Shown here in pieces: positions 14,418-63,642 of a stretch of DNA of 64,000 nucleotides. This DNA comes from Vicinamibacterales bacterium (GTDB taxonomy: Bacteria > Acidobacteriota > Vicinamibacteria > Vicinamibacterales > JAMQPK01): positions 881 to 64,880 of the forward strand of contig CAVUTO010000018.1 in the NCBI GenBank assembly GCA_963744405.1, read 5' to 3'. The position numbers were made by a program, and so were the translations under genes. The notes beneath the pieces were generated by a model that saw only the letters and a program-made list of their open reading frames with translations, was not told the origin of the DNA and did no database searches. Positions within the stretch are counted from its first letter, which is position 1. The number at the start of each line of letters is the position of its first letter.

Positions 14418-14895
14418 GTCGGGCCGACAGGCGGTGAAGGCAAACACCATCGGCGGCAGTCGCAACGATCAACCTGGCGTCGGCACCGACTTAGGCGTCT
14501 GTTAAGGCTCAGGCCAATGTCTCGGTGAATTCCCCATCGCTTGGCGGACTACCCCGGAGTAATCCGCCGAGAAATGTCGGAGTCACCCGCATCGCTGGAC
14601 AGAAATCGCCAACTTCAGTTGACCGCGACCCCGATGAGCGGCAACGCCGCCTCAGAGCGCACGGCGTTGTAACCCTCTAAACGTGCCGGTCCTACTGCGG
14701 CTTAGACTTCACCCAGCCGCGCTTGTCAACCAGAACGCCGCGCTTTACAAAGACGAAGTACTCGATACCGTCACCAGGATCTGCGTACTCCAGCATCACT
14801 TGTTCGCTCGCCATGTTAAGGAATTCTGCAGCGGGCGCCAACCTGGCGAAAAGCCGGGCTCGCCAGCCTTGAATTGATCCTGTGCAACGGTAGGA

Positions 14896-14971
14896 CTCTA
14901 TCGGGAGTGACCCGGCGCGCGGACGCACGCTTCGAGCCCGGATGAGGACCGCCGGGTCACTTTCGATAGAG
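14896..14971. other. Conserved end-proximal hairpin of IS copy 1
   Basis: The arms CTCTATCGGGAGTGACCCGGCG and CGCCGGGTCACTTTCGATAGAG form 22 bp with two G-T pairs. Copy 2 has the same structure with a compensated C:G to T:A change. Confidence 0.5.
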
Positions 14972-15224
14972 CCGTTTGGACCAAGCCGCTGGCGTTTGCG
15001 GCGGACGCGGGCCGGTCGGCTATGGGCGTTCGAATCGTGACGAGCCCCGAGGCGTTCGGGTGCGCGTCTTCGCGATGGAGGCCTGATCGAGGCGGTCGAG
15101 GACGTCGCCGGCATGTCGGATCGACATGACGGATGCGACACGGCGATCGCGGCTGTGGACAGACCTCCGGTGCTCGCGCGTGGGAGCGCGGCTGACGGCG
15201 GAGTGGCGAGACGCGGGCGGCGGC

Positions 15225-16419
15225 TTACGAGCTGTCATAGACGAGGTCGGCGAGGAGCGCTGCAAGAAAGAGCTGCCGCGCGGTCAGTCGTTCGACGATG
15301 CGCATAGGCGCGCCACAGCGCGGACACGGCCAGGACGCTCGTGGCGTGCGGTGACTGAGCGGCGCGGTCGGTGGCGGCGGCGCACCGCGAGCGACCTGCT
15401 CGACACGTGGGCAAGATCGGCGGGTGCGAGCAGCGAGGGGCGAGCAAGCCCGAAGTAGCGGATGCGGACGAAGCGTTTCGGGAGGACGTGCAGCAAGAAA
15501 GCGTCGGAGGAAGTCGTCGACGTCGAGCGTCAGCGTGCGCATCTGGCTCCCGTGCCGATAGTCCTTCCACCGAAACGAGACCGTGTCGTCGGTGACGGCG
15601 ACGAGTCGGTGATTCGAGATGGCGACGCGGTGGGTGTACCGCGCGAGGTAGTGCAGGACGTGGGCGGGGCTGCCAAAGGGCGGCTTCGCGTAGACCACCC
15701 ACGGTTGGTGATGGAGCGATCGGAGCCACCGCGCGAAAGGCGGACTCGGGTGCCAGCGCCTGCAAGGCCCCAGGAAACGAGAGCCGTCCCTCCCGCCACG
15801 CCTTGCGCAAGCCGGCGACGAGTTTCCCGCGAAAGACCTGCCTCAGCACCTTCACGGGCAGAAAGAAATTCGGTCGCGCGTGGATCCACCGCGCCCCATC
15901 GGGCGACAGGCCGCCAGCAGGGACCACGCAGTGGACGTGCGGGTGATGCTGCAGGCGTTGTCCCCAGGTGTGGAGGACCATCAGTCCCCCAATCGCCGCG
16001 CCCAGGCGTTTCGGATTCGCCGCGACCTGCAGCAAGGTCGCGGCGGTGGCCTGAAACAGGAGGTCGTAGACGACGCGTTTATTCGCCAGCGCGAGCCGTG
16101 CCAGCGGTTCCGGCACCGTGAAGACGACGTGGACGTAGCCCACCGGCAGGAGCTCGTGCTCCCGCGCGGCCACCCAGGCGTTACGGGCGGCTGTGAGGCA
16201 CTTCGGGCAATGCCGATCCCGACAGCTGTTGTACGAGAGCGCCGACTGCGCGCACTGGTCGCAGCGATCGCGGTGCCCGCCGAGTGCCGCGGTTCGACAC
16301 TGGGCGATGGCCCGGAGGACGCGCCGATGGTGCCCGGTCACCCAGGCGCAGTGCGTCTCCAAGAAACGATCGCCGTGTTGGCGCACGATGTCGGCCACCT
16401 CAAAGGGTGGCCGCGTCAC
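15225..16419 (-). pseudogene. IS91-family Y2 (rolling-circle, HUH) transposase, at least 3 frameshifts
   Basis: 'CDQCAQSALSYNSCRDRHCPKC' is the zinc-binding motif. 'HTWGQRLQHHPHVHCVVPAGG' is the HUH motif. 'HYLARYTHRVAISNHR' is the Y2 motif. The pieces are spread over ORFs 15235-16980, 15225-15698 and 15284-15496. The GTG start at 16419 overlaps the recombinase TGA. Confidence 0.75.
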
Positions 16420-17314
16420 CGCCGGTGCTTCAGCCGCGTCCGTCGCGCGGTGTCGGGCGCCGCGAGGGTCAGCGCGTCCAAGGGACTGGCGACGGCCTGG
16501 AGATGTTTCTGGGAGAGATGGAGATAGAGCACGGTGTGCCGGATCTCCACGTGGCCAAGGAGCAGCTGAATCGTCCGGAGGTCCGCGCCACTCTCCAGTA
16601 AGTGGGTGGCGTACGAATGGCGCACCAGGTGCGGCGAGCAGCGCTTGCGCACGCCGGCGCGCCGGGCCGCGACGACGCACGCGTCCCAGAGGACCTTGGG
16701 CGTGATGGGCTTGTCGGCGCGCCAGCCGTCGACGGTGCCCGGAAACAGCCACGTCTTCGGCCGCATCCACCGGTAGTAGGCGCGCAACGTCGTCAGGAGC
16801 GTCGGGCTGAGCGGCACATACCGATCTCGTCCGCCCTTTCCCGCGCTGGATGTGAATGAGCATCCGCCGGCTATCGATGTCCGCGACCTGCAGCTGGCGC
16901 AGCTCCGCGTTCCGCATGCCGGTCGAGTACAGGACCATCAGCATCGTGCGGTGCGACAGACTGTCGGCGGCGTCGATCAACGCGCGCCATCTCCTCGACG
17001 CTCAGGATCTTGCGGCAGCCGCCGCGGGGCTTTGGGATAGGGCGTGTCGTCGAGCAGGTACCGACGCTTCAGCGTCTTCACGAAGAAGAAGCGCAACGCC
17101 GCGACGTGGAGGCGAACCGTCAACGGTCGCATCTTCCGCTCGATGCAGCAGATACGCTTGGTAGCGATCGGAAATGCGTCTGATTCAGCCGGTCAGGCCG
17201 GCACTTGAAATGTCGGGCGAATTGCTCGACGGCGTGAAGATACGTCGAGATGGTCGTCGGCGCGTAGTTACGGCGCTGGAGCTCCTCCAGCATGATCTGG
17301 CGGCAATGGGTCAC
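16416..17314 (-). pseudogene. Tyrosine recombinase (phage-integrase family), frame-disrupted
   Basis: N-terminal SAM-like 'MTHCRQIMLEELQRRNYAPTTISTYLHAVEQFARHF' (17120-17314). Core 'ADSLSHRTMLMVLYSTGMRNAELRQLQVADID'. C-terminal 'HLVRHSYATHLLESGADLRTIQLLLGHVEIRHTVLYLH' (16416-16817). AGGAGG lies 6 nt upstream of the GTG. Confidence 0.75.
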
Positions 17315-17468
17315 AAGACACCTCCTGTGACCCCCACGCTACCCCGACGATCGAGCGAGGCTTACGCGTAGCGTCCGCCGCGCCAGCGGCTTGGTCCAAC
17401 GCCGTAGTGTAGAGATACCGATCGCTCCACACCAGGCGACCAATTGCGGGTAATCCTCTGATGGTTTA

Positions 17469-20465
17469 ATGCTGATGACGCCTGACCAATGGTTGGAGGT
17501 CCAGCGGATCTATCACGCGGCCTTGGCGCTAAGCGCCAACGACCGGGCCAGTTTTCTCGACCAGGCGTGCGCGGGCGACGACACACTACGCCGTGAAGTC
17601 GAGTCGCTGCTCGAGCATGAGCTGAGCGTGGAGGGCTTTCTGGCGACGACGCGGACCGTGGACGCCGACCCCGAGGTCAAGCCGCGTTCGCTCTCCCCTG
17701 GCACGATCTTCGGCCCCTACCGAATTCTCCATTTGCTCGGCCGCGGCGGCATGGGGATCGTGTACGAAGCAGAGGAAGTCGACAGCGCGCGTCGCGTGGC
17801 GCTGAAGGTGATCGCCACGCGCCTGCAGAACCAGGTCGAGCGTGATCGCTTTCTGCGCGAGGGCCGGCTGGCTGCCTCGATCAATCATCCAAATTGCGTT
17901 TACGTTTTCGGGGCCTGCGAGATCGATGGCCAGCCCGCGATCGCGCTGGAGCCGATGCTGGAGACTCTCGCCGATCGCCTGCACCGCGACGGCCCGTTGC
18001 CGCCAGCGGCGGCCGTTGACGCGATTCTCCAGGTTGCTCGAGGGCTCGCGGCCGCGGCAGATGGCGGCATTCTGCATCGCGATGTCAAGCCCTCGAACTG
18101 CTTCATCGGCGACCACGGCCTCGTCAAGATCGGCGATTTCGGGATTTCGCGATCGGCGCGTCCTGCCATCGACACGACGCAGCTCTCCAGGGTCGGACAT
18201 GTCGTCGGGACCCCAAGCTATGCCTCTCCGGAGCAGCTTCACGGCGCCCCGCTCGACACGCGCAGCGACATCTACGGCGTAGGCGCCACGTTGTTCGAGC
18301 TGCTCACCGGTCGCACGCCCTTTGTCGCGGCAGACCTGATGTCGATGCTGATGGCGGTGGCGAATGATCCTCCGCCCGCGCCCCACACGTTCGACCGGAC
18401 GATCCCGAAGGGTTTGAGCGCGGTCGTTGTGCGTTGTCTCGCAAAAAAACCGGAGCACCGGTTCGCAGACTACCAGCAGCTCGCCGCAGCACTCGAGCCA
18501 TATGCATCGGCGAGCCCTACCGCCGCGACCCTCGGTCGTCGATTCGTGGCCGGAACCATCGATCTCGCGATCGTGAGTGCGCCGCTCATCGCACTCGGCA
18601 TCCTGGGTACGAGTCTCGCAGAATTCGTCATCATGTTGCTCTACTTCGGCCTCTTCGAAAGCATCTGGAGCGCGACCCCCGGCAAGGCACTCTGCGGCCT
18701 TGCCGTCGTCGGCGCAAACGGTCAACGTGCCAGCCCGGCTCTCGTGATGGCTCGGGCGGCCGCTTACGCCATGGGGCTGCTTTTGATCACGTTCATTTCG
18801 ACACGGGAACCCCAGGGTCTCGAGCAGACGCTGGGCGGCCCGTTGGCATTCTTGACCGTCCAGGCGTTCGCATTGCTGCCACTCGCGATCATGTTCTCGA
18901 CCGCGCGGCGTCACAATGGCTTCGCTGGCCTGCACGATCTCGGCACCCGCACGCGCGTTGTCGAGCGCCGAGTGAGAGCCGCTCGAGCCGCGCTCACCAC
19001 ATCGGCAGGTCCGCCGCGGCATGTGATCGCCGGACGAGCGGGACCCTACGAAGTGCTGCCAGACGCCGTACGAGGCCTGGCTGACGGATGGCGATGGGGA
19101 TTCGACCCGCGCTTGCGGCGCACTGTCTGGCTCCGGTTCAGCGATCCCGGGACGCCACCCGTTGTTCCTGCACGCAGGGCGGTGGGCCGCGGCACACGGT
19201 TACGCTGGCTGGCTGGACGCCGGCTCGATAACGAGGCGTGGGACGCGTACGAGGTGGCCGAGGGTGTACCGTTGGCCGAGGCCACGCGGGACAGGCACGA
19301 GTGGACCGACGTTCGATGGTGGCTACTCGACCTCGCCAGGGAGTGCGCGGCGATGACAACTGCCGATCGGGCGCCGCGCAGTCCGCAACGCGTGTGGGCG
19401 CTCTCGTCTGGTGGCGTCAAGTGGCTCGACGATCCAGTGGCGGATGCCGTCGCTCCGGCCGACACAGTCGCCACGGATCAGGAACTCTTGATCGCCATTG
19501 CACGGACCGCGCTCGGCGGCGAGCTCGAACCGGTGACCGCGAGCTCGGTGTCTCGCCACCCGCTTCCTCTCGGGGCGTGTCGCTTCCTCGAGCGCCTCGC
19601 CGGTCCGCCGGGCCGGGACATCGGTGCGATGGTGCGAGAGCTCGAGGCACTGACCAAACAGCGCGCCGTCCTCACGCGGGCATGGCGAATGGTGCCTGTC
19701 GCGATCTGTGCGCTAGTGCCCGCGTTCGTTTTGAGTGCGGCGATGGTGTTCACGACGACCAAGGACGTCGACCGAAGCCGCGTGCCGATCGACGAGCGCG
19801 CGGCGGGAGCCTTGCTGTGGCACCTCGCGCTCGCCGACCGCGCGTGGATAGCGATTTCGATGGACGAGCGCGAATCGATCGAGCGCGCGCTGGCGACTCG
19901 ATACAGGGACGAGCTGTCCGAGGGTCGATTGTTCACCCCACGGAACATGGATTATCTCGATCTCCGACGACTATCACCAGGCGATCGCGAGCGATGTGCT
20001 GCGGCGTTATCCACAACCGCTCCCCGATCGGCAGGATCAAGTCGACACTCGAGCCGCCGCCATCATTCGACGAGCGACCCAGGACCCGGTGCGGCCGTGG
20101 TACGAGCCCATCCTTTCGGGAGCGTTCCAGATGTACTTGTCGGTCGCCGTGCTGGCACTCGTCGTGAACTTCGCCTTTCGGCGTGGCTTGATACGCATGA
20201 TGGGACTCGAGCTCGTGACGGCCGACGGGCGGCCTGCGTCACGGCTGCGTGTGCTCGCCCGTACGGCGATCACGTGGTCACCTGTGTTAATGGTTCCGTT
20301 CGTGATCCCGTTCGTCCCGGGAATCCCGCCAAGTCTCACTGGGACACCCTGGTGGATGTTGGTAATGATCGCGGGCGGCGTCTTCGTCGTCATCACGCCC
20401 GCGCGCGGCGTGCAGGATCGCATCGCTGGCACCTGGGTCGTGCCAAGATAGCGGCCGGGGGATAG
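17469..20465 (+). CDS. Ser/Thr protein kinase with RDD-family membrane domains (the last ~170 aa of this ORF are out of frame)
   Basis: 'MTPDQWLEVQRIYHAALAL...REVESLLEHE' is the N-terminal extension shared with the other kinases. 'GRGGMGIVYEA', 'HRDVKPSNCFI', 'DFGISR' and 'GTPSYASPEQ' are kinase motifs. The RDD-like stretch is 'RRFVAGTIDLAIVSAPL...WSATPGKALCGLAVV'. Confidence 0.8.
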   Translation: MLMTPDQWLEVQRIYHAALALSANDRASFLDQACAGDDTLRREVESLLEHELSVEGFLATTRTVDADPEVKPRSLSPGTIFGPYRILHLLGRGGMGIVYEAEEVDSARRVALKVIATRLQNQVERDRFLREGRLAASINHPNCVYVFGACEIDGQPAIALEPMLETLADRLHRDGPLPPAAAVDAILQVARGLAAAADGGILHRDVKPSNCFIGDHGLVKIGDFGISRSARPAIDTTQLSRVGHVVGTPSYASPEQLHGAPLDTRSDIYGVGATLFELLTGRTPFVAADLMSMLMAVANDPPPAPHTFDRTIPKGLSAVVVRCLAKKPEHRFADYQQLAAALEPYASASPTAATLGRRFVAGTIDLAIVSAPLIALGILGTSLAEFVIMLLYFGLFESIWSATPGKALCGLAVVGANGQRASPALVMARAAAYAMGLLLITFISTREPQGLEQTLGGPLAFLTVQAFALLPLAIMFSTARRHNGFAGLHDLGTRTRVVERRVRAARAALTTSAGPPRHVIAGRAGPYEVLPDAVRGLADGWRWGFDPRLRRTVWLRFSDPGTPPVVPARRAVGRGTRLRWLAGRRLDNEAWDAYEVAEGVPLAEATRDRHEWTDVRWWLLDLARECAAMTTADRAPRSPQRVWALSSGGVKWLDDPVADAVAPADTVATDQELLIAIARTALGGELEPVTASSVSRHPLPLGACRFLERLAGPPGRDIGAMVRELEALTKQRAVLTRAWRMVPVAICALVPAFVLSAAMVFTTTKDVDRSRVPIDERAAGALLWHLALADRAWIAISMDERESIERALATRYRDELSEGRLFTPRNMDYLDLRRLSPGDRERCAAALSTTAPRSAGSSRHSSRRHHSTSDPGPGAAVVRAHPFGSVPDVLVGRRAGTRRELRLSAWLDTHDGTRARDGRRAACVTAACARPYGDHVVTCVNGSVRDPVRPGNPAKSHWDTLVDVGNDRGRRLRRHHARARRAGSHRWHLGRAKIAAGG
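19996..20451 (+). CDS. True C-terminal part of the 17469 kinase (second RDD-like membrane domain); frameshift near 19950-19990
   Basis: 'YLSVAVLALVVNFAFRRGLIRMMGLELVTADGRPASRLRVLARTAITW...ARGVQDRIAGTWVVPR' has the RDD-family ending. The frame is open upstream as 'DYHQAIASDVLRRYPQ'. Confidence 0.55.
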   Translation: MLRRYPQPLPDRQDQVDTRAAAIIRRATQDPVRPWYEPILSGAFQMYLSVAVLALVVNFAFRRGLIRMMGLELVTADGRPASRLRVLARTAITWSPVLMVPFVIPFVPGIPPSLTGTPWWMLVMIAGGVFVVITPARGVQDRIAGTWVVPR

Positions 20466-20511
20466 GGATGGGATGGGGATTGGGGATTGGGGATTAGGGA
20501 TTGGGAATGGG
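20456..20511 (+). repeat. G-tract repeat (GGGGATT/GGGATT-type), G-quadruplex-prone
   Basis: Nine runs of 3-5 G separated by 2-4 nt (GGGGGATAGGGATGGGATGGGGATTGGGGATTGGGGATTAGGGATTGGGAATGGG), directly after the kinase stop. Confidence 0.6.
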
Positions 20512-20802
20512 CGACGACGAAAGTGTGCTGACGCCGCGACAAATTACCTTGCGGATCTTTATTCAATGAAGGCTGCAGCCTCAACACTACTGGTTATCGC
20601 ATCTTACAGTTTAGGTCAGAATGCTGTGCTCGACAGACTCGAACAGCTGCCCAGCGATCCACGAGACCGTAACTTTTGGACTTTCTATAGAAACGACTGG
20701 CTTCCGGACGAGACGCGAGACTACGTGATGTCCGTTTTCTCTGCAGCGCTCATCTGCGAACAGCCGGACGTTTTCAATATTCCAGTAGAAAGAATCTGGT
20801 AG
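20473..20802 (+). pseudogene. C-terminal fragment of a lytic transglycosylase (SLT/MltD-like) in a lower-GC patch
   Basis: 'AATNYLADLYSM...LLVIASYSLGQNAVLDRL...RNFWTFYRNDWLPDETRDYVMSVFSAALI' resembles the end of SLT-domain proteins ('AAYN.G...FW.L....LP.ET..YV'). There is no N-terminal catalytic Glu region. The ORF start lies inside the G-tract repeat. Confidence 0.4.
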
Positions 20803-20878
20803 CTGGGAGTGGCTATTCGAACCCAGCAAGAGATGGCCCACTTCGTGGGGCGATGACATCGCGGATTAAGGATTGGGA

Positions 20879-20974
20879 ATGGACGACGACGGAAGCGTGC
20901 CTCCCGATTTTCTGGCGAGCGGACGGCTGGCACCGGCCGCGGCTTCACCGTCTCAGGAGGCTGGGCGTGAGTGA
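20879..20974 (+). pseudogene. Orphan 5' fragment of a kinase paralog (31 codons)
   Basis: 'MDDDGSVPPDFLASGRL' matches the start of the 57441 kinase ('MSDEQAVPPDFLASGRL'). The preceding 35 nt (20866-20900) repeat 20494-20528 with 4 mismatches. Confidence 0.35.
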
Positions 20975-21042
20975 GGCCAAGATTCTTGAAGCGTTCCTTC
21001 CCGCCATCGCTCAGAATCGTCAAGCGGCGCTCTTGGGCAGAA

Positions 21043-21663
21043 TCAACTGCGGTCACCCCTGACACACCGCACGGAAATAGCCATCTCCTTCTCACCCTGG
21101 GGCTGACGGTGGAGAGCTTGGCCGCCTTGACCGAAGTTGTAATACGGGGCGCTGCTCCGATCGTTGTCTGATGCCGTCCAGTAAAACCCGTGCGCCTCTA
21201 ACCGGGCGTACTTTCCATCGGAACGGTTGCCGCCCAGGACGGCATTGAAGCCTGACGTGCCTCCGCTCACGAGTGCCGTGAACGAGGCTCTACCTTTGTC
21301 AGCCGAGTCGTCGCTGACTCCGCCATAGCGCTTCGCCATCTGCCGCCATTCGGCGTCGGTCGGCAAGCGCCAACCGTCTCCGAGCGACCCACACACCCGC
21401 TGCGCCGACTCCCATGTATACATACGGCCGTATCGACGGCAATTCGGCTCGGCATCGTCATAACAATAAGATGGCGACACGTTGACGTTGAGATTGGCAG
21501 TTGTCCATTCCTTACCGTCCGCCATCCGCCTCGAGGAAGAGATTGTGCCGGACGCGTTCTGGTCTTTCGCTGAACGCTCGGTCGTGCCGGCACGGCCGAC
21601 AGATGCGAAGGCGATACTCAGCGCGAGTGCCACGATACGAATTCGAATCGGCGTCATGGTCAT
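21043..21663 (-). CDS. FISUMP (Fibrobacter succinogenes major paralogous) domain lipoprotein/secreted protein
   Basis: 'DGKEWTTANLNV...CYDDAEPNCRRYGRMYTWESAQRVCGSLGDGWRLPTDAEWRQM...GFNAVLGGNR...GFYWTAS...SVRCVR'. Confidence 0.75.
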   Translation of the reverse strand: MTMTPIRIRIVALALSIAFASVGRAGTTERSAKDQNASGTISSSRRMADGKEWTTANLNVNVSPSYCYDDAEPNCRRYGRMYTWESAQRVCGSLGDGWRLPTDAEWRQMAKRYGGVSDDSADKGRASFTALVSGGTSGFNAVLGGNRSDGKYARLEAHGFYWTASDNDRSSAPYYNFGQGGQALHRQPQGEKEMAISVRCVRGDRS

Positions 21664-21699
21664 GCGGACCGTTCCGGGCTACATACCGTGCGGTGAGCG

Positions 21700-22293
21700 T
21701 CAGAATCTGAACACGAAACCAAGCGAGGCTCTCGTGAAATCGACCTTCCCGGGCGACTGGGCGATCGGGACGCCGAGGATCTCCAGATCGTCGAACGTCT
21801 GGAAGTAGCGGATGTCGAAACGGAGACCGGCGCGGGTCCCGAAGAACAGCATCACGCCGCCCCCGGCGCTCCACGTCAGATCGTTCTCGTCGATGTCGGA
21901 GACGCCGGTACCGAAGTCCGACTTCGATTTGAGCAGGCCCGCGCCGCCGACGCCGTACGGACGGATGCCGAAGCCCTGCTGGCCGCCGAAGGGAATCCCG
22001 ATGACCAGGTTTCCAGTCGCCGTGAACACGCTGCTGCCGCCCACGTCGGTCTTGCCATAGAAGTCTGGACTGAAACTGAAGTCACCCTCGACGCCGAAGA
22101 CTCCGCCGCCCATGAAGGTAATGCTCCCGCCCCAGTTGAATTGACTGGTGTCGAACGCATCCGAGAACTCCGTGCCGGAATCGCCGCCGAAATTTACGCC
22201 GAAGAACGGAATGAGCAGTGTGTCTGCCCGCGCGGGTACCGCCGCGAGCATGATCGCGACGAGCGCAGTGCCGATGACTCTGGTTGAAAGCAT
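21700..22293 (-). CDS. Outer-membrane beta-barrel protein (OmpA-like/OmpW-like barrel family)
   Basis: Signal peptide 'MLSTRVIGTALVAIMLAAVPARA', an alternating Gly/aromatic beta-strand pattern, and the terminal 'SLGFVFRF'. Confidence 0.7.
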   Translation of the reverse strand: MLSTRVIGTALVAIMLAAVPARADTLLIPFFGVNFGGDSGTEFSDAFDTSQFNWGGSITFMGGGVFGVEGDFSFSPDFYGKTDVGGSSVFTATGNLVIGIPFGGQQGFGIRPYGVGGAGLLKSKSDFGTGVSDIDENDLTWSAGGGVMLFFGTRAGLRFDIRYFQTFDDLEILGVPIAQSPGKVDFTRASLGFVFRF

Positions 22294-22539
22294 GTGTCGC
22301 TCCTCCTCAATGATTCGCGCCGCTGGCGCCGTGAGTAACCACCATGCAACTCCGCGTCCGCCCGACCCGGGGGGCGGGGCTCACGCGCATCGCATGGCGC
22401 GTCAAGGAGTTGCGGCTATCGGGAGGGCTCGGGTCTCCGGACAGACCACGAAATCTCGTGGCCAGCCCCACCGGGGGTGGTGGGTATATGGCGACCGATA
22501 GCCGCGAGCCGTTCTGCGTATACTGTGCGAACCTCCCCG

Positions 22540-23715
22540 ATGACACCTGAACGGTGGCAGCAAATCTCACAGCTCTACATCGCTGCGCTGGCGTGCGACG
22601 TGGCGGAGCAAACCGCGTTTCTGCACGATGCCTGTGGCGACGATGCGGAGCTGCGAAGCGAGGTCGAGTCGCTGCTCGCCCAGGAAAGTCTGCCCGATAG
22701 TTTTTTGAATCCGTTAAGAGGATTAGAGATTGGGAAGTCGGAATTCGATCTGACTGGTCAGCAGATCGGCATCTATAAGGTTATGTCCCTCCTGGGTGTC
22801 GGCGGGATGGGCGAGGTCTATCGCGCGCGCGACTCGAAGCTCGGTCGCGAAGTGGCGATCAAGATCCTGCCAAGGCTTTTCATCAGCGATCCTGATCGGT
22901 TGACGCGATTCGAACGCGAAGCGCGCGTGCTTGCGTCCCTCAATCATCCCCACATCGGCGCGATCTACGGAGTGGAGGACGCGGACGGGATTCGGGCCCT
23001 GGTGCTCGAGCTGGTCGAAGGCGAAACGCTGGCCGACCGCATCGTGCGCGGGCCCATACCTCTGGCCGATACCCTGACCATCGCGCGACAGATCGCCGAT
23101 GCCCTTGATGCAGCCCATGAGAAGGGGATCATTCACCGCGATCTCAAACCGGCCAACATCAAGATCACGCCCGACGGCATCGTCAAGGTGCTGGACTTCG
23201 GGCTCGCGAAAGCGACGGCGGGTGACGGAGCGACACCGGACTTCACGCAGTCGCCCACGGTGACGGCAGGTGGCACACGCGAGGGAGCCGTGCTCGGGAC
23301 TGCGGCCTATATGAGTCCCGAACAAGCGCGAGGGCAGGCAGTCGACAAGCGAACCGACATCTGGGCGTTCGGCTGTGTGGTGTACGAAATGCTGACCGGC
23401 CGAATCGCATTCGCGGGGCAGACGGTCTCGGACACGATAGCGGCCATTCTCGAGCGCGAGCCTGATTGGTCTCGGTTGCCTGCATCCACGCCGGCGAACA
23501 TTCTTCGTGTGCTGCGACGCTGTCTTCAGAAGGATGCGAGACGCCGCCATCGCGATATTGGCGATGTTCGGATCGAGCTCGATGACTCGCCGAGCGACGC
23601 TGCGCACACGGTGCCTGTGGCTCGCCCTGTTCTGTTGAGCCGGCTACGGTCGTGGGTTGGCGGCGCCGTTGCCGGGAGTCATCCTGAAGGCGCTGCAATG
23701 AGAGGGATCACCTGA
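22540..23715 (+). CDS. Ser/Thr protein kinase, C-terminally truncated tandem paralog (kinase domain only)
   Basis: ATG at 22540 ('MTPERWQQISQLYIAALACD'). '[13 protein letters not shown]', 'HRDLKPANIKI', 'DFGLAK' and 'GTAAYMSPEQ'. The ORF ends about 25 aa after the kinase domain, where the paralog has its TM helix. Confidence 0.8.
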   Translation: MTPERWQQISQLYIAALACDVAEQTAFLHDACGDDAELRSEVESLLAQESLPDSFLNPLRGLEIGKSEFDLTGQQIGIYKVMSLLGVGGMGEVYRARDSKLGREVAIKILPRLFISDPDRLTRFEREARVLASLNHPHIGAIYGVEDADGIRALVLELVEGETLADRIVRGPIPLADTLTIARQIADALDAAHEKGIIHRDLKPANIKITPDGIVKVLDFGLAKATAGDGATPDFTQSPTVTAGGTREGAVLGTAAYMSPEQARGQAVDKRTDIWAFGCVVYEMLTGRIAFAGQTVSDTIAAILEREPDWSRLPASTPANILRVLRRCLQKDARRRHRDIGDVRIELDDSPSDAAHTVPVARPVLLSRLRSWVGGAVAGSHPEGAAMRGIT

Positions 23716-23804
23716 GTCCCAAAGGACGACTGGCCCTCGCCCACCCCGCCTGCGCCAAGCAGTAACACGATCTGATAGACGGCCGATCTGCCGGCATTTC
23801 CCCA

Positions 23805-23948
23805 CGGCGGGTGGCGCCGATTTTTCTTTGTCCGCCGCGCCCCTCGACACCGCTCGGGGCGCCCTGAGCCTCGTCGAAGGGCGCAGGGCCGTCTCACGTA
23901 CACGCGCTTGTCGGCCCGAGGACGGGCAAAGGAAAATCGGCGACAGGG
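23805..23948 (+). repeat. Structured intergenic repeat, copy A (long inverted-repeat form with a 44-nt insertion in the loop)
   Basis: Arm GGCGCCGATTTTTCTTTGTCCG pairs with CGGGCAAAGGAAAATCGGCG (20 bp, 2 G-U). The core GGCCCGAGGACGGGCAAAGGAAAATCGGCGACAGG is shared with 26022, 46144, 54410 and 63643. Confidence 0.6.
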
Positions 23949-24026
23949 GCCTGAAGCTGGCGAACGTTACGAAGAACTGCAGGATGTGCCGCGAGCCGTT
24001 CTGCGTATACTGTGCGAACCTCCCCG

Positions 24027-25796: not shown

Positions 25797-25949
25797 AGGC
25801 TCCACCATTTTAACGACCGTGATTGACACCTCGCTACTTGAGATTAGGTTTTAGTCGCGATCACCGCGAGTGTCATCGGACTGACGAACAGCCGCGCCGG
25901 ATCGTCGAGCTCAGCCAGTTCGCGGTCCCCCTGCGTGACGTCTGCGCCT

Positions 25950-25993
25950 GCGCGCACCGGCTGCGAAGTGTTTAGCTCAGCTAAAGCTGAGCC
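25950..25993 (+). repeat. Second intergenic repeat module (CGCGCACCGGCTGCGA ... TTAGCTCAGCTAAAGCTGA hairpin)
   Basis: The same two blocks recur at 54561-54607, and the first block recurs at 26197-26214. GCTCAGC-taaa-GCTGAGC is a 7-bp hairpin. Confidence 0.4.
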
Positions 25994-26021
25994 CTACGAA
26001 TAAAGCTGAGCCCATCCGCTG

Positions 26022-26062
26022 TTGTCGGCCCGAGGACGGGCAAAGGGAAATCGGCGACAGGA
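26022..26062 (+). repeat. Structured repeat, core-only copy D
   Basis: TTGTCGGCCCGAGGACGGGCAAAGGGAAATCGGCGACAGGA has an outer TGTCG/CGACA stem and an inner GCCCG-agga-CGGGC stem. Confidence 0.55.
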
Positions 26063-53367: not shown

Positions 53368-53371
53368 ACGA

Positions 53372-54310: not shown

Positions 54311-54409
54311 GGCTGCATCCTAGCTGCGAGCCGTGGTGTTTATCAAGTCAAGCCGGAGGGGTTGCTCGCCACTTGGCTCAGCAGTAGTCGACCGCCTCGT
54401 TGCGGAAAA

Positions 54410-54561
54410 GCCGGCCGGCTTGCACTCGTCCCACAGTGACGCGTTTCGCAGCCCTCATGGCGGGTGGCGCCGATTTTTCTTTGTCCGCCCCGCAGGGCCG
54501 TCTCTCGTGGCACGTGCTTGTCGGCCCGAGGACGGGCAAAGGAAAATCGGCGACAGGACCC
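54410..54561 (+). repeat. Structured intergenic repeat, copy B (long form)
   Basis: It aligns over ~150 nt with 63643-63791 with few mismatches. It has the same 20-bp arm pairing and core as copy A. Confidence 0.6.
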
Positions 54562-54607
54562 GCGCACCGGCTGCGAGAGACTGAGGGGTTAGCTCAGCTA
54601 AAGCTGA
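54561..54607 (+). repeat. Second repeat module (CGCGCACCGGCTGCGA ... TTAGCTCAGCTAAAGCTGA), here 3' of the core
   Basis: The same blocks occur at 25950-25993, where they lie 5' of the core. Confidence 0.4.
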
Positions 54608-54639
54608 TCGCTCGCCACTTGGCGACGGATCGTGACCGC

Positions 54640-57441
54640 TCAGTGCTTTGTCGCCGACGCAATGCGGCGTAGCTCGTCGAAGAAGTTGAAGATGAAGACG
54701 AGCTTGTCCGGCCGATCCTCGGCCTGACCTTCGGTCGCCACGGCGCCGGCCACTCGCTCGCCGTCCGGATGAAGGTCCATCATGCGCCGAAATGTCGGGA
54801 CCGGGCCCAGTAGGATCCGTCGCTCGGTCCAGAGCTTTGGCGCTTCGGCCCTGAACGAATCCCCTACTACTGTGTACGACGCCGCCATGATCTGATTGTC
54901 GAGCGTGAGATAGAGCAGCTCATCTTTCGCCCGCGACCATATTGGCCCCTGACCGCCACCGTTGGATACTCGCCAACTGCCCTCTCGCTTCGGAAACGGG
55001 CGCACGTGCACCTCAAACCTCCCGGACTCGTTCGATTGGTAGGCGAGCCAGCGCCCATCCGGCGAGAAAGACGGTGCGACCTCGGCAGCAGGCGTATTCA
55101 AGAAGGCATAAGGCTTTCCCGGTTTCCACCCTGAAACCCCATCGCCCTCCATCGGGAGGATCATCAGGTCCGCAACGTTTTGAGAACCTTCCTGGAAGGC
55201 CAGGAACCGGCCATGCCATGAACCCGTGGCTACGGCGCTCAGTGATGCGCTGTCGGTCAGTTGCTCTGGGTCACCGCCGCCGTCAGCGCGGACCAGGTAA
55301 AGATTCACCCGCCCATCGGCGACACGATTCGAGACGAAAGCTATGTGCTGGCCGTCTGGCGTCCACACAGGCATGCTGTCAGGCTGGGCATCAACCGTGA
55401 GGTGGGTCAGCTTGTCTCGCGCCCAGTCGTACACGGCGATGTCTCTCTGGCCGTTGTCGATGATGTCCATCGCCACACGTGTACCATCCGGTGAAAACTG
55501 CGGATGACTCCAGTTTGCGAGTGTGGCTCGAAGGGGAGTGATCTTTCCGTCACGTGTCAGCCATTCGATCGGGAGGTCCGTGGACGAGGTCTGCCAGGGC
55601 CGGTAGACTGCCTTGCCATCTGCCGCAAAAGCGAACTGAGCAGCACCGGTGCTGCGAGTCTCCGCAATGTTCTCGATGACCGGCCTCCCCGTGCCGGTCA
55701 TCAACGTCACGAGATCGAACGGCGCAGCAAACAGCGTCCCTTTGTGCACGTAGACCAGATGGCCGCTCGGCACATATCTCCCGAAGCTTCCACCGCGCTG
55801 GACGATCTTGCGCGGTCCGTTCGGCAGCGTTTGAACGACGATGTTGGCATCGGCGTAGTTGTTCGCGCGGTTGTGCGCGGTGTACAGGATTGCTCTCGCT
55901 CCTGGAAGCACCTGGGGCCATCGGTGCGTGACTTCGTCGTCTGCTAAGGTCGTCGCCGGTTGCGGCGTGCCGCCATCGGCCGACACACGCAATAGCGAAT
56001 TCCGCGGCGAGGAGACGGAGCTTGCGAGGCTGAACAGGATGTCACCGTCCTCGCCCCAGGCGCCGCCACGCGGGTCTGGGGCGTCGCAGATCGGGACGAC
56101 CGCGCCACCGGCGACCGGCACTTTTTTCAGCTTGCCTTCCGCGAAGAACCCAATCCACAGCCCGTCGGGCGAGAAAAAGGGTAACGAGGCACCGGCCGTG
56201 CCAGGAAGGGCGACCGCCTGCAACTGCTCGAGCGGCCGGCGGTACAACTGACTCGACCCATTACTAATCCCCGGAAACGCCAGCACGGACCCATCCGGCG
56301 AGAGCGCCAGACCGGCATTCGGCGAAATGTCGCCGTCCATTCCTAACTCCGCGCTGAGTCGATGCGGTGACACAAGAGCGGGCTGGGACTGCCAAGGCGC
56401 CCAAGGCGAGATGGCGATCCACACCGCCAACGCGAGGACACTGGCGAAGGCTAACGCGATTTTAGGCCGCGAGAACGGCTTCGGCGTAGAGCTGACCTCA
56501 GCGACTTGCTCGGCGCCGACTTCAGCGATCTCCAGCCGCGCGTCGGCGATGTCGCTGAGTCGCTGATGACGATCCTTGGCCAGGCACCGCCGAAGCATCC
56601 GGCGGATCGACGCGGGGGTGGACGCTGGGAGCGCCGACCATGCCGGTTCTTTGGTGATGACGAACGCCAGCGTGTCAGACACCTCATCGCCCGCGAACGC
56701 GCGGACGCCGGTCAACATCTCATAGAGCACGCAGCCGAACGCCCAGATATCGGTGCGTTTGTCGACGGGCTTTCCCAGCGCCTGTTCGGGGCTCATGTAC
56801 GCCGCCGTGCCCAGGATGATCCCCGCTTGCGTCATCGCTTGCGTGATCGTCGGTGACGGCGACACGTTCGGCGCACGACCGACGGGTTCCATCGCCTTCG
56901 CCAACCCGAAGTCCAGCACCTTCACCGTGCCGTCGGCACGGACCTTGATATTCGCGGGCTTCAGATCGCGATGGATGATCCCCTGCTCGTGCGCCGCTTC
57001 GAGCGCGTCGGCGATCTGTTTCGCGATCGGCAACGCCTCGTCCATGGGGATCGCTCCGCGTGCGATGCGCTGTGACAGGTCCTCGCCCGTCACCAACTCC
57101 ATGACGAGAGCGTGGGCATCACCTGTCTGCTCGAGCCCGTGGATGATGGCGATGTTGGGATGATTCAACGACGCGAGGGTCTGGGCTTCGCGGATGAAAC
57201 GTGCGAGCCGTTCGGCGTCGCGCACGAAGAGATCGGGCAGGACCTTGATCGCAACATCGCGGTGGAGCTTCGTGTCCGTGGCGCGATAGACCTCGCCCAT
57301 GCCGCCCGCGCCCAGCTTTTCAGTGATGTGATAGACCCCGATCGATTTGCCGATCAGGTCGACACCCAGATGTCGAATGGCCGATTCCAAGCGTCCGCTC
57401 GCCAGAAAGTCGGGCGGTACGGCCTGCTCGTCACTCATCAC
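54640..57441 (-). CDS. Ser/Thr protein kinase with a TM helix and a large PD40/TolB-like beta-propeller domain (intact)
   Basis: '[13 protein letters not shown]', 'HRDLKPANIKV', 'DFGLAK' and 'GTAAYMSPEQ'. Propeller repeats 'FSPDGTRVAMD', 'WTPDGQHIAFVSNR' and 'FSPDGRWLAYQSNESGRFEVHVRPFP'. It ends 'FIFNFFDELRRI'. Confidence 0.85.
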   Translation of the reverse strand: MMSDEQAVPPDFLASGRLESAIRHLGVDLIGKSIGVYHITEKLGAGGMGEVYRATDTKLHRDVAIKVLPDLFVRDAERLARFIREAQTLASLNHPNIAIIHGLEQTGDAHALVMELVTGEDLSQRIARGAIPMDEALPIAKQIADALEAAHEQGIIHRDLKPANIKVRADGTVKVLDFGLAKAMEPVGRAPNVSPSPTITQAMTQAGIILGTAAYMSPEQALGKPVDKRTDIWAFGCVLYEMLTGVRAFAGDEVSDTLAFVITKEPAWSALPASTPASIRRMLRRCLAKDRHQRLSDIADARLEIAEVGAEQVAEVSSTPKPFSRPKIALAFASVLALAVWIAISPWAPWQSQPALVSPHRLSAELGMDGDISPNAGLALSPDGSVLAFPGISNGSSQLYRRPLEQLQAVALPGTAGASLPFFSPDGLWIGFFAEGKLKKVPVAGGAVVPICDAPDPRGGAWGEDGDILFSLASSVSSPRNSLLRVSADGGTPQPATTLADDEVTHRWPQVLPGARAILYTAHNRANNYADANIVVQTLPNGPRKIVQRGGSFGRYVPSGHLVYVHKGTLFAAPFDLVTLMTGTGRPVIENIAETRSTGAAQFAFAADGKAVYRPWQTSSTDLPIEWLTRDGKITPLRATLANWSHPQFSPDGTRVAMDIIDNGQRDIAVYDWARDKLTHLTVDAQPDSMPVWTPDGQHIAFVSNRVADGRVNLYLVRADGGGDPEQLTDSASLSAVATGSWHGRFLAFQEGSQNVADLMILPMEGDGVSGWKPGKPYAFLNTPAAEVAPSFSPDGRWLAYQSNESGRFEVHVRPFPKREGSWRVSNGGGQGPIWSRAKDELLYLTLDNQIMAASYTVVGDSFRAEAPKLWTERRILLGPVPTFRRMMDLHPDGERVAGAVATEGQAEDRPDKLVFIFNFFDELRRIASATKH

Positions 57442-57587
57442 TTATCACCCATCACCGTTCGCGTCATCCACCGGTAGGGGCAAGGGCCAGACTTCTGCAG
57501 ATTATAGGGTAGTTGCTCCCGGCGAAGGGGATTACTCCTGCCTGAGGCAGTCCATCCCTCGGGCGACGTTAACGCAGGACGCACGAC

Positions 57588-57616
57588 TTGCTTAGCTAAG
57601 CGCGCCTAGCTAAGAT
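57588..57616 (+). promoter_or_regulatory. Candidate promoter/operator of the vapBC-like operon
   Basis: TTGCTT-N17-TAAGAT ends 10 nt before the GTG at 57627. It overlaps two TAGCTAAG half-sites (57592-57600, part of the perfect palindrome CTTAGCTAAG, and 57606-57614). Confidence 0.35.
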
Positions 57617-57626
57617 CGAAGAGACC

Positions 57627-57860
57627 GTGGCGAAGCCTCATTCCATCCATGCCGCCAAGACCCATCTGTCGCGCCTGGTCGAACGCGCAGAACGCGGAGA
57701 AGAAGTAATCATCGCGCGTGGATCGACACCCGTCGTGCGTTTGACCCGCCTGCGGGCAGAACGGCCCGCCCGCCGGTTCGGCGCCATGCGCGGCCGCGCC
57801 CGCGTCACGCGGGCCTTCTTCGAGCCGCTCCCGGAATCCGAGCTCAAGCGCTGGGAGTAG
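57627..57860 (+). CDS. Phd/YefM-type antitoxin
   Basis: 'IHAAKTHLSRLVERAERGEEVIIARGSTPVVRL'. It ends 3 nt before the PIN gene. Confidence 0.75.
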   Translation: MAKPHSIHAAKTHLSRLVERAERGEEVIIARGSTPVVRLTRLRAERPARRFGAMRGRARVTRAFFEPLPESELKRWE

Positions 57861-57863
57861 CCG

Positions 57864-58250
57864 GTGCGCCTGCTGCTGGACACTCATGCACTGCTCTGGT
57901 GGCTGGATGGCGACCGCCGGTTGTCACTGAAAGCACGCCGTGCGATAGCCAATCAGTCGAACACGATCCTTGTCAGCGCCGCCTCCGCGTGGGAGATCGC
58001 CACAAAGGCGCGCCTCGGCAAGCTGCCCGGTGCGACGGATGTCGCAGCGGACGTTGCGGCGTGCGTCGCCGGCCAGGGCTTTCTGCCGCTGGACATCACG
58101 CTGCTCCACGCACAGAGGGCCGGTCGACTGCCTGGCGAACACAGAGACCCGTTCGACCGAATGCTCATCGCGCAGAGCCAAATGGAGGACATCGCGCTCC
58201 TCAGCGACGACGAGGCCTTCGACAACTTCGACGTCCGCCGATTCTGGTAG
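57864..58250 (+). CDS. vapC: VapC-family PIN-domain toxin
   Basis: 'LLLDTHALLWWL', 'LVSAASAWEIATK', 'HRDPFDRMLIAQS' and 'LLSDDEAF' carry the PIN acidic residues. The frame is intact at 128 aa. Confidence 0.8.
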   Translation: MRLLLDTHALLWWLDGDRRLSLKARRAIANQSNTILVSAASAWEIATKARLGKLPGATDVAADVAACVAGQGFLPLDITLLHAQRAGRLPGEHRDPFDRMLIAQSQMEDIALLSDDEAFDNFDVRRFW

Positions 58251-58370
58251 CTCACTCGACCGGCCGAAAGGCATCAAGGGAACTCGCAACGTAGCGCGAA
58301 GCGGCTGGCTCTCGTTGAGCTGCGGCCGAATTACTCCCGAACTGGCGGGTGAGTGGATTACGCGGGCCGA

Positions 58371-61072
<2,702 letters not shown>

Positions 61073-61139
61073 GCGATCTTCGTGGATTATACGGGTCGAC
61101 GCGACCACGCGGACGGTATTACTCCCGATCACGGTAGGA

Positions 61140-61214
61140 CTCTATCGGGAGTGACTCGGCGCGCGACGCACGCTTCAAGCCCGCACCTCGATCGCCGAGT
61201 CACTTTCGATAGAG
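61140..61214. other. Conserved end-proximal hairpin of IS copy 2
   Basis: Arms CTCTATCGGGAGTGACTCGGCG and CGCCGAGTCACTTTCGATAGAG. Relative to copy 1 the paired positions changed together (C:G to T:A), while the loop sequence diverged. Confidence 0.5.
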
Positions 61215-61449
61215 CCGTTTGGACCAAGCCGCTGGCGTCTGCGGCGGACGCGGCCCCTCAGCTATGTGCGTTCAATCGTGGGAGCCCCGGACGTAGGGAC
61301 TTCCATCTACCCAATGGAGATCGCGAAATCCACATGCGCAGGAGTCATCGCACGCCGGGTGCGGGTCGTCAATCGTGGCGATTTGCCACACCTCCGGCGC
61401 ACGCGCGTCCGAGCGCGACGGCGAGCGGGTGGCGGGACATGGACGCGGC

Positions 61450-62632
61450 TTACGAGGTGTCATAAAAGACGTCTGCCAGGAGCGCTTCAACGAAGAGCTG
61501 TCGCGCGGTTTGGCGTTACGATGCGAGTAGGCGCCCCGCAACGAGGGCACGGCCACGACGCTCGTGGCCGCGCGGTGATGAGCGGTTCGGCCGGTGGTGT
61601 TGGGGCGCCCGCGAGCGCCTGACGACAGTGGGCCAGCCCGCGGGTACGAGCGCGTGAGGCGAGGAAGCCAAAGTAGCGGATGCGGACGAAGCGCTTCGGC
61701 AGCACATGGAGGAGAAAGCGTCGGAGAAACTCGTCGGCGTCGAGCGTGAGGGTGCGGATCTGACTCCCATGCCGGTAGTCCTTCCATCGAAACGAGACGG
61801 TGTCGTCAGTCACGATGACGAGCCGGTGGTTGGAAATGGCGACGCGGTGGGTGTAGCGCGCGAGGTAGTGCAGCACGTAGGCAGGACTGCTAAAGGGCGG
61901 CTTGGCATAGATCACCCACGACTGGCGATAGAGCGATCGGAGAAACGCGCGGAAGGCGGACTCGGCGGCCAACGACTGTAAGGTGCCAGGAAACGAGAGC
62001 CGCCCTTGGTGAAATGCTGCGCGCAAGCCGGCGACGAGTTTCCCGCGAAAGACCTGGCGCAGCACCTTCACGGGCAGAAAGAAAGTCGGTCGCGCGTGGA
62101 TCCACGCGCGCCATGGGCGACAAGCCGCCAGCAGGTACCACGCAGTGGACGTGGGGGTGATGCTGGAGGCGCTGGCCCCAGGTGTGGAGGACCATCAGTC
62201 CGCCAATCGCGGCGCCCAGGCGTTTCGGATTCGCCGCGACCTGGAGCAAGGTCGCGGCGGTGGCGTGAAACAGCAGGTGGTAGACGACGCGTTTATTGGG
62301 CAGCGCAAGCCGTGCGAGCGGTTCCGGCACCGTGAAGACGACGTGGACGTAGCCGACGGGCAGGAGCTCGTGCTCCCGCGCGGTCACCCAGGCGTTGCGG
62401 GCGGCTGTGAGGCACTTCGGGCAATGCCGATCGCGACAGCTGTTGTACGAGAGCGCCGACTGCGCGCACTGCTCGCAGCGATCGCGATGCCCGCCGAGTG
62501 CCGCGGTGCGACACTGGGCGATGGCCCGAAGGACGGCCGATGGTGCCCGGTCACCCAGGTGCAGTGCGTCTCCAAGAAACGATCGCCGTGTTGGCGCACG
62601 ATGTCGGCCACCTCGAAGGGTGGCCGGGTCAT
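61450..62632 (-). pseudogene. IS91-family Y2 transposase, frame-disrupted
   Basis: 'MTRPPFEVADIVRQHGDRFLETHC', 'CEQCAQSALSYNSCRDRHCPKC', 'HPHVHCVVPAGG' and 'HYLARYTHRVAISNHR'. There is a 2-nt deletion near 62100 and a shift near 61500. Confidence 0.7.
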
Positions 62633-63521
62633 CGCTGGTGCTTGAGCCGCGTGCGTCGCGCGGTGTCGGGCGCCGAGAGGTTGAGCGCGTCCAAGGGACT
62701 CGCGACGGCTTGGAGATGTTTTTGGGAGAGATGGAGATAGAGCACGGTATGCCGGATCTCCACGTGGCCGAGGAGGAGCTGAATCGTCCGGAGGTCCGCA
62801 CCACTTTCAAGTAGGTGCGTGGCGAAGGAATGGCGCAACAGGTGAGGTGAGCAGGGCTTGCGCAAGCCGGCGCGCCGGGCCGCGACGACGCACGCGTCCC
62901 AGAGGACCTTGGGTGTGATGGGCTTGTCGGCGCGCCAGCCGTCGACGGTCCCCGGAAACAGCCACGTCTTCGGCCGCATCCACCGGTAGTAGGCGCGCAG
63001 CGTGGTGAGGAGCGTCGGACTGAGCGGCACATACCGATCGCGTCCCCCTTTACCCCGTTGGATGTGGATGAGCATGCGCCGGCTGTCGATGTCGGCGACC
63101 TGCAGCTGACGCAGCTCCGCGTTGCGCATGCCGGTCGAGGTACAGAACCATCAGCATCGTGCGGTGCGACAGACTGTCGGCGGCGTCGATCAAGCGCGCG
63201 ACCTCCTCGACGCTCAGGATCTGCGGCAACCGACGCGGGGCTTTGGGATAGGGCGTGTCGTCGAGCAGGTACCGACGCTTCAGCGTCTTCACGAAGAAGA
63301 AGCGCAACGCCGCAACGTGGAGGCGAACCGTCAGCGGTTGCATCTTCCGCTGGCGCAGCAGATACGCTTGGTAGGACCGGAAATGCGTCTGATTCAGCCG
63401 GTCAGGTCGGCACTTGAAATGTCGGGCGAATTGCTCGACGGCGTGAAGATAGGACGAGATGGTCGTGGGGGCGAGTTCGGCGCTGGAGCTCCTCCAACAT
63501 GATGTGGCGGCAATGGGTCAC
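62629..63521 (-). pseudogene. Tyrosine recombinase, frame-disrupted
   Basis: The C-terminal half is intact in ORF 62629-63129 ('GKGGRDRYVPLSP...HLLRHSFATHLLESGADLRTIQLLLGHVEIRHTVLYLH'). The N-terminal part is broken near 63120 and 63470. The ATGA overlap links it to the transposase start. Confidence 0.7.
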
Positions 63522-63642
63522 AAGACACCTCCTGTGACCCCCACGCTACCCGGTCGGTCGAGCGAGGCTTACGCGTAGCGTCCGCCGCGCCAGCGGCTTG
63601 GTCCTAACGCCGTAGGGTAGACCGATCCTGCGGTCCTGTTGA

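Follow-up and report, generated by a model that had tools for sequence, protein, structure and literature searches.

Insertion sequences of the IS91 family, such as IS91, IS801 and IS1294, are rolling-circle transposons that lack classical terminal inverted repeats and encode a Y2-HUH transposase related to rolling-circle Rep proteins. They are 1.5-1.8 kb long, and ISWz1, ISShvi3 and ISSod25 are known from ISfinder as IS91-family elements with an upstream open reading frame (ORF) that resembles a phage integrase. A gene pair of this kind has also been annotated in plasmids of Sinorhizobium and Bradyrhizobium, as a 'tyrosine-type recombinase/integrase' followed by an 'IS91 family transposase'. 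The left ends of IS91-family elements carry a GAAC, GGAC or CAAG tetranucleotide and then a conserved GC-rich hairpin (PMC3189936), and ISwz1 and ISShvi3 have been named as members of the family (PMC11322121, PMC9229058). In Helraiser, one of the Helitrons (eukaryotic rolling-circle transposons), a hairpin near the 3' end acts as the terminator (PMC4778049). The stretch of DNA considered here, hereafter the window, comprises 64,000 nucleotides (nt) of a Vicinamibacterales genome (GenBank assembly GCA_963744405.1, contig CAVUTO010000018.1, positions 881 to 64,880 of the forward strand) and contains two copies, copy 1 and copy 2, of an IS91-family element with a tyrosine recombinase gene upstream of its transposase gene. 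The two copies are likely to be independent insertions of one widespread element in an acidobacterial-type chromosome, with resident DNA between them and a shared orientation that is coincidental. In the literature, no description was found of this acidobacterial lineage, of its ends or target motif, or of the role of the recombinase in IS91-type elements.

The element, its ends and its target

Local alignment places copy 1 at 14887-17423 and copy 2 at 61131-63627. Over 2481 aligned columns the two are 90.4% identical, and almost all of the ~45 gaps are single nucleotides; BLAST, with gaps counted, gives 88.1%, and a repeat finder returns the same pair as a direct-repeat chain with a spacing of ~46.2 kb. 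The two collinear minus-strand copies of the original prediction, judged by eye to be 90-93% identical, are reproduced by this alignment, with copy 2 starting at 61131. Both copies contain the Pfam domains Phage_int_SAM_4, Phage_integrase, Zn_Tnp_IS91 and Y2_Tnp on the minus strand, spread over several frames. The domains and their coordinates bear out the two-gene layout first proposed, in which the recombinase stop overlaps the transposase start (GTGA in copy 1, ATGA in copy 2), and an AGGAGG 6 nt before the recombinase GTG is present in both, as had been claimed (17326-17312 and 63533-63519). After frame correction, the proteins of both copies contain zero stop codons, keep all catalytic motifs and are 82-93% identical to those of an intact element at locus L008, with the stop-free copy 1 recombinase at 93%.

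The intact L008 transposase scores 418.6 bits on the NCBIfam IS91 equivalog NF033538 (cut-off 125). Y2_Tnp (PF04986) is matched over both copies with E-values from 8e-13 to 4e-41, Zn_Tnp_IS91 (PF14319) with E = 9e-28 in copy 1 and 7e-26 in copy 2, and the HPHVH and YLARY motifs are present in both frame-corrected transposases. Comparison of the transposase with solved structures gave no match. The recombinase contains PF00589 (E = 3e-31) and PF13495, and its R..K..HxxR..H..Y residues are found in the corrected translations within MRNAEL, GKGGRDR, HLxRH, LGH and LYLH. Its nearest solved structures are XerC-like 4a8e, IntI4 2a3v, XerA 5hxy and XerD 1a0p, but it falls in no specific equivalog, with best scores of 184.5 (XerA), 175.6 (XerD) and 173.2 (IntI) against curated cut-offs of 220-435. 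The initial identification as an IS91-family element with an upstream tyrosine recombinase was right, given the equivalog score and the annotated pair in rhizobial plasmids.

The true ends of the element (Table 1), set from near-identical copies in the same genome and from where the terminal motifs fall in the window, lie inside the aligned region on the left. Similarity between the copies continues for 20-24 nt past the true left ends because the target motif is shared. The left end reads TT[T/A]GGACCAAG and continues into a GC-rich stem-loop, GCCGCTGGCGCGGC; the pattern TTN-GGAC/GAAC-CAAG/GAAG-CC-GCTGGCGCGGC is conserved in all copies, and by analogy with IS91 and IS801 the left end of copy 1 may be ter-like. 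The right end is …CGCCGGGTCACTCCCGATAGAGTCCTACCGT, with a 9-nt tail finishing in CCTACCGT, and its pattern can be written as CACTCCCGATAGAGTCMTAYCGT. The extreme ends are not inverted repeats of each other. Instead, 17 nt of the left terminus are copied inversely ~90 nt inside the right end, upstream of a hairpin, and the internal repeat of copy 1 (14978-14994) is complementary to its left end. Between left end and internal repeat, 9-13 of 13 combinations are paired per position, with compensatory changes at two positions. The right-end hairpin, of 19 interrupted base pairs, is paired in 95.9% of cells over 78 copies versus 31-46% for slid controls. Covariation is seen at one position of the stem (CG in 62 copies, GC in 7, UA in 3), the double changes were reached by 0 of 500 shuffles, and the window copies themselves differ by a compensatory change, T-A in copy 2 and C-G in copy 1. 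A role of the internal repeat as a 'splint' for both termini was considered and rejected, since the pairing with the last 4 nt of the element is not kept (CCGT, TCGT or ACGT versus ACGG) and only the pairing with the left end is retained. No tRNA genes or Rfam families were found at or near the element ends.

Pieces of the right end also occur apart from complete elements. About 6% of the metagenomic matches are right-end-only remnants, consisting of the last 22-34 nt with unrelated DNA before them (L090, L098, L105, L119, L133, L155), and in two contigs right ends lie in tandem, 34 or 257 nt apart (L083 2722-3001, L095 64-120). Such pieces may be products or remnants of one-ended transposition, as described for IS801.

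The insertion site is an extended, semi-conserved motif of ~35 nt. On its 5' side, 77 unique left flanks give T.GGT.AACACT.CGGCG, and on its 3' side the imperfect palindrome TWMTCRSGASYWA emerges from 132 unique right flanks; the consensus target reads GGTCTACCCTACGGCG before the junction and TACTCGCGAGTAATC after it. The target is not duplicated, as no direct repeat was found in the flanks of 19 full-length insertions, copies 1 and 2 included. A tetranucleotide target of the GTTC/CTTG type (GAAC/CAAG), which had been suggested for the element ends, is absent at both ends of these 19 insertions and then of 132. Scored with position weight matrices (PWMs) of the target built without them, the four window junctions reach 7.9-17.8, compared with ~2.5 at the 99th percentile of random window sequence, and therefore each copy is a complete simple insertion in a good target. 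The end of the left-flank motif, …CTACGGCG, resembles the right terminus of the element, …CCTACCGT, a likeness that corresponds to the IS91 principle that both cleavage sites adjoin similar sequences. When 3 Mb were scanned with a joint PWM for unoccupied targets, 18 matches were obtained where ~14 were expected, so target sites do not form a repeat family.

Table 1. Coordinates of the element copies, their parts and other features of the window.
Feature	Position	Strand	Description	Evidence
Copy 1	14887..17399	-	Full-length 2513-nt IS91-family element; both genes frame-broken as sequenced	Termini conserved over 19-132 insertions; same-genome copies; motif coordinates
Copy 1 recombinase	16416..17314	-	Tyrosine recombinase, Xer/integron-integrase-like; ~297 amino acids (aa) corrected; five +1 insertions	GTG 17314-17312; AGGAGG 17321-17326
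Copy 1 transposase	15225..16419	-	IS91-family Y2-HUH transposase; ~396 aa corrected; four +1 insertions, one +3 insertion	GTG start overlaps recombinase stop (GTGA)
Copy 2	61131..63607	-	Full length, 2477 nt, same family; reading frames broken as sequenced	
Copy 2 recombinase	62629..63521	-	Tyrosine recombinase; 2-nt deletion, one +1 insertion	GTG 63521-63519; AGGAGG 63528-63533
Copy 2 transposase	61450..62632	-	Transposase; four small deletions	ATG overlaps recombinase stop (ATGA)
Copy 1 left end	17372..17399	-	TT-GGACCAAG, then stem-loop GCCGCTGGCGCGGC; 1 nt deleted versus consensus TTNGGACC	
Copy 1 right-end module	14887..14994	-	Internal repeat, hairpin and tail	Internal repeat 14978-14994; hairpin arms 14950-14971 and 14896-14917; tail TCCTACCGT 14887-14895
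Copy 2 right-end module	61131..61237	-	Internal repeat, hairpin and terminal tail	Internal repeat 61221-61237; hairpin arms 61193-61214 and 61140-61161
Copy 1 left-flank target motif	17400..17423	-	…CTACACTACGGCG, outside element	PWM 15.0 versus random 99th percentile 2.6
Copy 2 left-flank target motif	63608..63627	-	GGTCTACCCTACGGCG, outside element	PWM 17.8
Intervening block	17424..61130	.	43.7 kb; ordinary chromosomal-type genes; no sign of a mobile unit	Gene content, composition
Ser/Thr kinase with PD40 repeats	58371..61132	-	Immediately downstream of copy 2 right end; first ~1 kb contains four frame shifts	Paralog of 54640-57441
Small repeat copies	23800-23955, 25995-26069, 46145-46187, 54412-54565, 63644-63796	+		Core GGCCCGAGGACGGGCAAAGGAAAATCGG

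Origin of the pair and of the block between

In a codon-aware alignment to intact references, the substitutions between copies 1 and 2 fall on codon positions 1, 2 and 3 in the ratio 48:30:142. The same profile is found between intact elements of different genomes (L008 versus L002, 65:38:193; likewise L008 versus L012). Because a third-position excess builds only in lineages that keep transposing, the two copies diverged under purifying selection while still transposing, and because copies fixed at a locus evolve neutrally, most of their ~10% divergence predates both insertions. Copies from two unrelated metagenome samples are 88.3% (L089) and 88.0% (L012) identical to copy 1, which is 88.1% identical to copy 2. 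Nor does any indel occur in both copies. These data speak for two separate arrivals. That both copies are instead products of one event, either a segmental duplication or a one-ended transposition, and decayed later in place would explain why they are collinear, share an orientation and have ~20 nt of similar left flank. Such an origin is hardly credible, however, since divergence in place should be even over the codon positions, the foreign copies are as near to copy 1 as copy 2 is, and the shared flank is accounted for by the target motif, which is seen at unrelated insertions too. A further possibility is that copy 1, the block and copy 2 form one rolling-circle 'composite', running from the ori of one copy through its ter and the block to the ter of the other, so that 14887-63607 moves as a whole. 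The copies share the minus-strand orientation, each has a structurally intact hairpin, tail and left end, and with ori and ter placed by analogy with IS91 the unit would run from the ori of copy 1 at 14887 across the block to the ter of copy 2 at 63607. IS91, IS801 and ISCR are documented to read through into adjacent DNA and to mobilise it (PMC3189936, PMC5714925), directly oriented pairs of ISwz1 lie on either side of resistance genes and yield circular forms (PMC11322121), and ~50 nt upstream of the left end are common to the copies at L014 and L015. A unit of this kind is nonetheless very improbable here. Neither a second copy of the block nor an empty site was found, and the nearest relatives are without comparable synteny; the block is like its flank in composition and gene function; copies 1 and 2 come from diverged lineages; both transposase genes are broken as sequenced; and IS801 read-through has been reported at 0.3-1.4 kb, far under 46 kb (PMC3189936). 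Nearby pairs of the element in other genomes, 10-26 kb apart, are inverted (L044/L045, L057/L059), which suggests that proximity alone is common. The direct orientation of the window copies is compatible, mechanistically, with rolling-circle read-through from one ori to the other ter, but purely as a matter of geometry.

Several observations weigh against two independent insertions. The closest sampled relative of copy 2 is copy 1 (88.1% versus 84.6% for the next), and an 80-nt perfect match persists between the two, across which homologous recombination could still take place; direct orientation is also what a read-through unit requires. In another genome, two copies share 718 nt beyond their right ends (L006 7516-8233 and L008 7518-8235; 97% identical, with differing left flanks), a sharing that the canonical IS91 model, with its read-through beyond the left end, does not predict. 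These 718 nt include an ORF of ~166 aa on the opposite strand. Their sharing could reflect a segmental duplication or an unorthodox transduction; 3' transduction as such was set aside, as it is at odds with the placing of ori at the right end in IS91.

The DNA between the copies fits independent insertion. It carries Ser/Thr kinases at 17469, 22477, 24012 and 54640, together with a broken one adjoining copy 2, two pyrroloquinoline quinone (PQQ) dehydrogenases (28830 and 46199), a sulfatase (41216) and a sulfatase fragment (35625), a Phd/YefM antitoxin (27550) and a PIN toxin (57864), so that the kinases, PQQ dehydrogenases, sulfatases and toxin-antitoxin loci of the original cargo list were all found. 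The comparison of block and flanks that had been proposed gave no break at the boundaries. GC content is flat at ~0.62 across both. In tetranucleotide composition, parts of the block are 0.185 apart, block and left flank 0.207, and parts of the flank 0.226, with the element copies as outliers at ~0.29. Paralogous PD40-repeat kinases, sulfatases and amidohydrolases lie on both sides of copy 1. The 43.7-kb block looks like resident chromosomal DNA, not an island or a captured set of genes. The old composite or one-ended structure of the original prediction thus lacks positive support, and against it stand the codon profile, foreign copies equally near to copy 1, four good targets, a block that resembles its flank, the multi-copy state of the element in related genomes and nearby pairs elsewhere. 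Since the pair marks no island or captured block, the kinases, PQQ dehydrogenases, sulfatases and toxin-antitoxin loci are to be read as resident chromosome.

Single genes of the region find close relatives elsewhere. Exact-match searches with the protein P0001 and with the products of two genes of the window returned no record, and the best matches reach 90-93% identity in amino acids. The hydrolase of the left flank (window 12115-13729) compared with L082, and the RDD-kinase to the right of copy 1 (17471-20453) compared with L205, are 92.8-93.5% identical in nucleotides, and in both relatives the homology ends at the boundaries of the single gene, with all neighbours differing. These Acidobacteriota are mosaics at the level of single genes and lack conserved synteny.

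Frame breaks and other repeats in the window

As had been claimed, each copy carries its own set of frame-breaking indels; in a comparison against relatives none was common to both. Copy 1 has 18 private insertions and 0 private deletions, whereas 13 full-length relatives have 0-3 insertions each and copy 2 has 2 insertions and 7 deletions. Bacterial indel spectra favour deletions. All 18 insertions of copy 1 adjoin columns that are polymorphic in the family (0.64 expected for each, ~3e-4 overall), and the inserted base equals the alternative allele of its neighbour in 10 of 15 single-base insertions (0.27 expected, p=0.0017). Random mutation should ignore family polymorphism. The pattern in copy 1 suggests a consensus artefact, in which reads of more than one copy of the element were merged and both alleles of a single-nucleotide polymorphism were written in tandem.

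It is accordingly a serious, if doubtful, possibility that neither copy has decayed. The frame breaks would then stem from consensus building over a multi-copy repeat in a long-read or mixed-population assembly, and at least one of the two elements would be intact and active in the genome itself. The stop-free corrected proteins with their full set of catalytic motifs and the insertion bias of copy 1 are consistent with this, as are isolated split genes among the unique genes of the window. The hydrolase (window 12097-13622) has a 1-nt deletion at 12422, and a methyltransferase (45561-46132) is split over two frames; a kinase near 8030 (7981-8034) appears, by coordinate arithmetic only, to have its N-terminus in another frame. 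In the closest relatives from ENA assemblies, L082 1893-4326 and L205 1463-4304, the same genes are also split, with breaks of their own, and such isolated breaks in single-copy genes suggest that assemblies of this class carry background indel errors. However, most long genes of the window are intact, which means that the general error rate is low, and no single partner copy accounts for the bases inserted in copy 1. The indels of copy 2 are mainly deletions and show no association with polymorphic columns. The private substitutions of copy 1 are spread nearly evenly over the codon positions (15:9:20), as expected for some real neutral decay, and the kinase adjoining copy 2 is broken four times, which fits a real inactivation after insertion. 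As sequenced, both copies are inactivated solely by small indels, either through real early decay or, at least for copy 1, through consensus errors over a multi-copy sequence. The earlier view that neither copy looks functional therefore stands for the frames as sequenced; given the indel anomaly of copy 1, it holds only if the sequence is accurate. More generally, 'decayed' repeats in metagenome-derived assemblies may be consensus artefacts, and pseudogene calls in multi-copy sequences need to be checked against reads.

The window also contains a family of small repeats. Their core, GGCCCGAGGACGGGCAAAGGAAAATCGG, occurs 5 times versus 0 expected, always on the plus strand. The long copies around it (~150 nt) can fold into an extended but imperfect hairpin (z = -4.1), whose arms are GGCGCCGATTTTTCTTTGTCCGCC and GGACGGGCAAAGGAAAATCGGCG, and one copy starts 17 nt past the end of similarity between copies 1 and 2 (63627) and 37 nt past the true left end of copy 2 (63607). 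This repeat belongs to no Rfam family, is absent from the 202 loci compared and looks like a genome-specific palindromic element resembling miniature inverted-repeat transposable elements. The C-terminal part of the sulfatase gene (41216-42619) has been copied into a fragment ORF of 216 aa (35625-36275), with at least 300 nt at 98% identity (35620-35919 versus 41211-41510), and a gene with an HNH endonuclease domain (34204-35328) adjoins this fragment. Another sulfatase ORF, at 7000-7953, begins at profile position 152 and is taken as a 5'-truncated remnant because the neighbouring gluconolactonase gene leaves no room upstream. Two Ser/Thr kinase paralogs in tandem (22477-23715 and 24012-25796), 91% identical over 300 nt at a spacing of 1487 nt and with a copy of the small repeat between them, look like a local gene duplication.

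Relatives and known systems

A search with the reconstructed transposase protein, in which all candidates were scored, gave 8000 proteins at E<=1e-20; among these, the best 120 listed are 83-92% identical to the query, and the intact proteins have 395 aa. In a scan of one genome per species, 365 confirmed genomic stretches carry the element, mostly in metagenome-assembled genomes of Acidobacteriota and often several times per genome. Intact relatives have a recombinase of 297 aa whose stop overlaps the start of a transposase of 395/396 aa. Copies inside one genome are 98-100% identical; those at L007 and L008 agree at 99.92% over 2495 nt and are unrelated outside that span. An element that couples a recombinase with an IS91-type transposase is thus among the commonest insertion sequences of soil Acidobacteriota, and its ends, hairpin and long target motif are now defined well enough for annotation and for automatic finding of insertions. 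Copies with 58-85% transposase identity are also found at L003, L004, L012, L013 (68%), L055 and L063, in bins assigned to Casimicrobiaceae, Gemmatimonadaceae, Alphaproteobacteria, Ignavibacteriota, Planctomycetota and even Bathyarchaeota, which reflects either wide horizontal spread or contamination of bins by contigs that bear the element.

By analogy with the model for IS91 and IS801, the transposase would nick at the right end (ori), a strand would be displaced along the whole element as far as the left end (ter), and the displaced strand would be joined beside a target that resembles the terminus of the element itself. The recombinase, inherited together with the transposase, probably resolves or integrates a circular or multimeric intermediate. 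It can also be imagined that the element is a hybrid transposon, in which the HUH transposase copies it out as a circle and the co-translated Xer-like recombinase inserts this circle site-specifically into the semi-palindromic target of ~35 nt, with left end, internal repeat and hairpin as the recombination site; this seems unlikely. If it were true, the two direct copies would also define an excisable segment of 48.7 kb.

Compared with Helitrons, the element is similar in its hairpin a few nucleotides from the 3' end, in the lack of a target duplication and in the capture of flanking DNA by read-through. It differs in having no helicase domain, in its bacterial host and in the accompanying recombinase, and, if the analogy with IS91 holds, its hairpin end would be ori and not ter. 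In the pairs of the rhizobial plasmids the two genes follow each other in the same direction as here, the recombinase directly before the transposase, although the transposase is only ~52% identical. With the IS91 family (IS91, IS801, IS1294) it has in common a transposase that passes the equivalog, the Zn_Tnp_IS91 and Y2_Tnp domains with HxH and YxxxY motifs, insertion without target duplication, asymmetric ends, and a left end in which GGAC/GAAC plus the CAAG tetranucleotide precede a GC-rich stem-loop. It departs from the family in its second gene, the tyrosine recombinase upstream, in its length of 2.5 kb (~2.49 kb), in an extended insertion motif of ~35 nt where other members have GTTC/CTTG beside the right end, and in the 17-nt repeat of its left terminus ~90 nt from the right end. 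Because the same gene pair is already annotated in plasmids, the element is of a known kind, and its lineage is a new, well-definable representative of the known IS91 type with an unusually long target motif.

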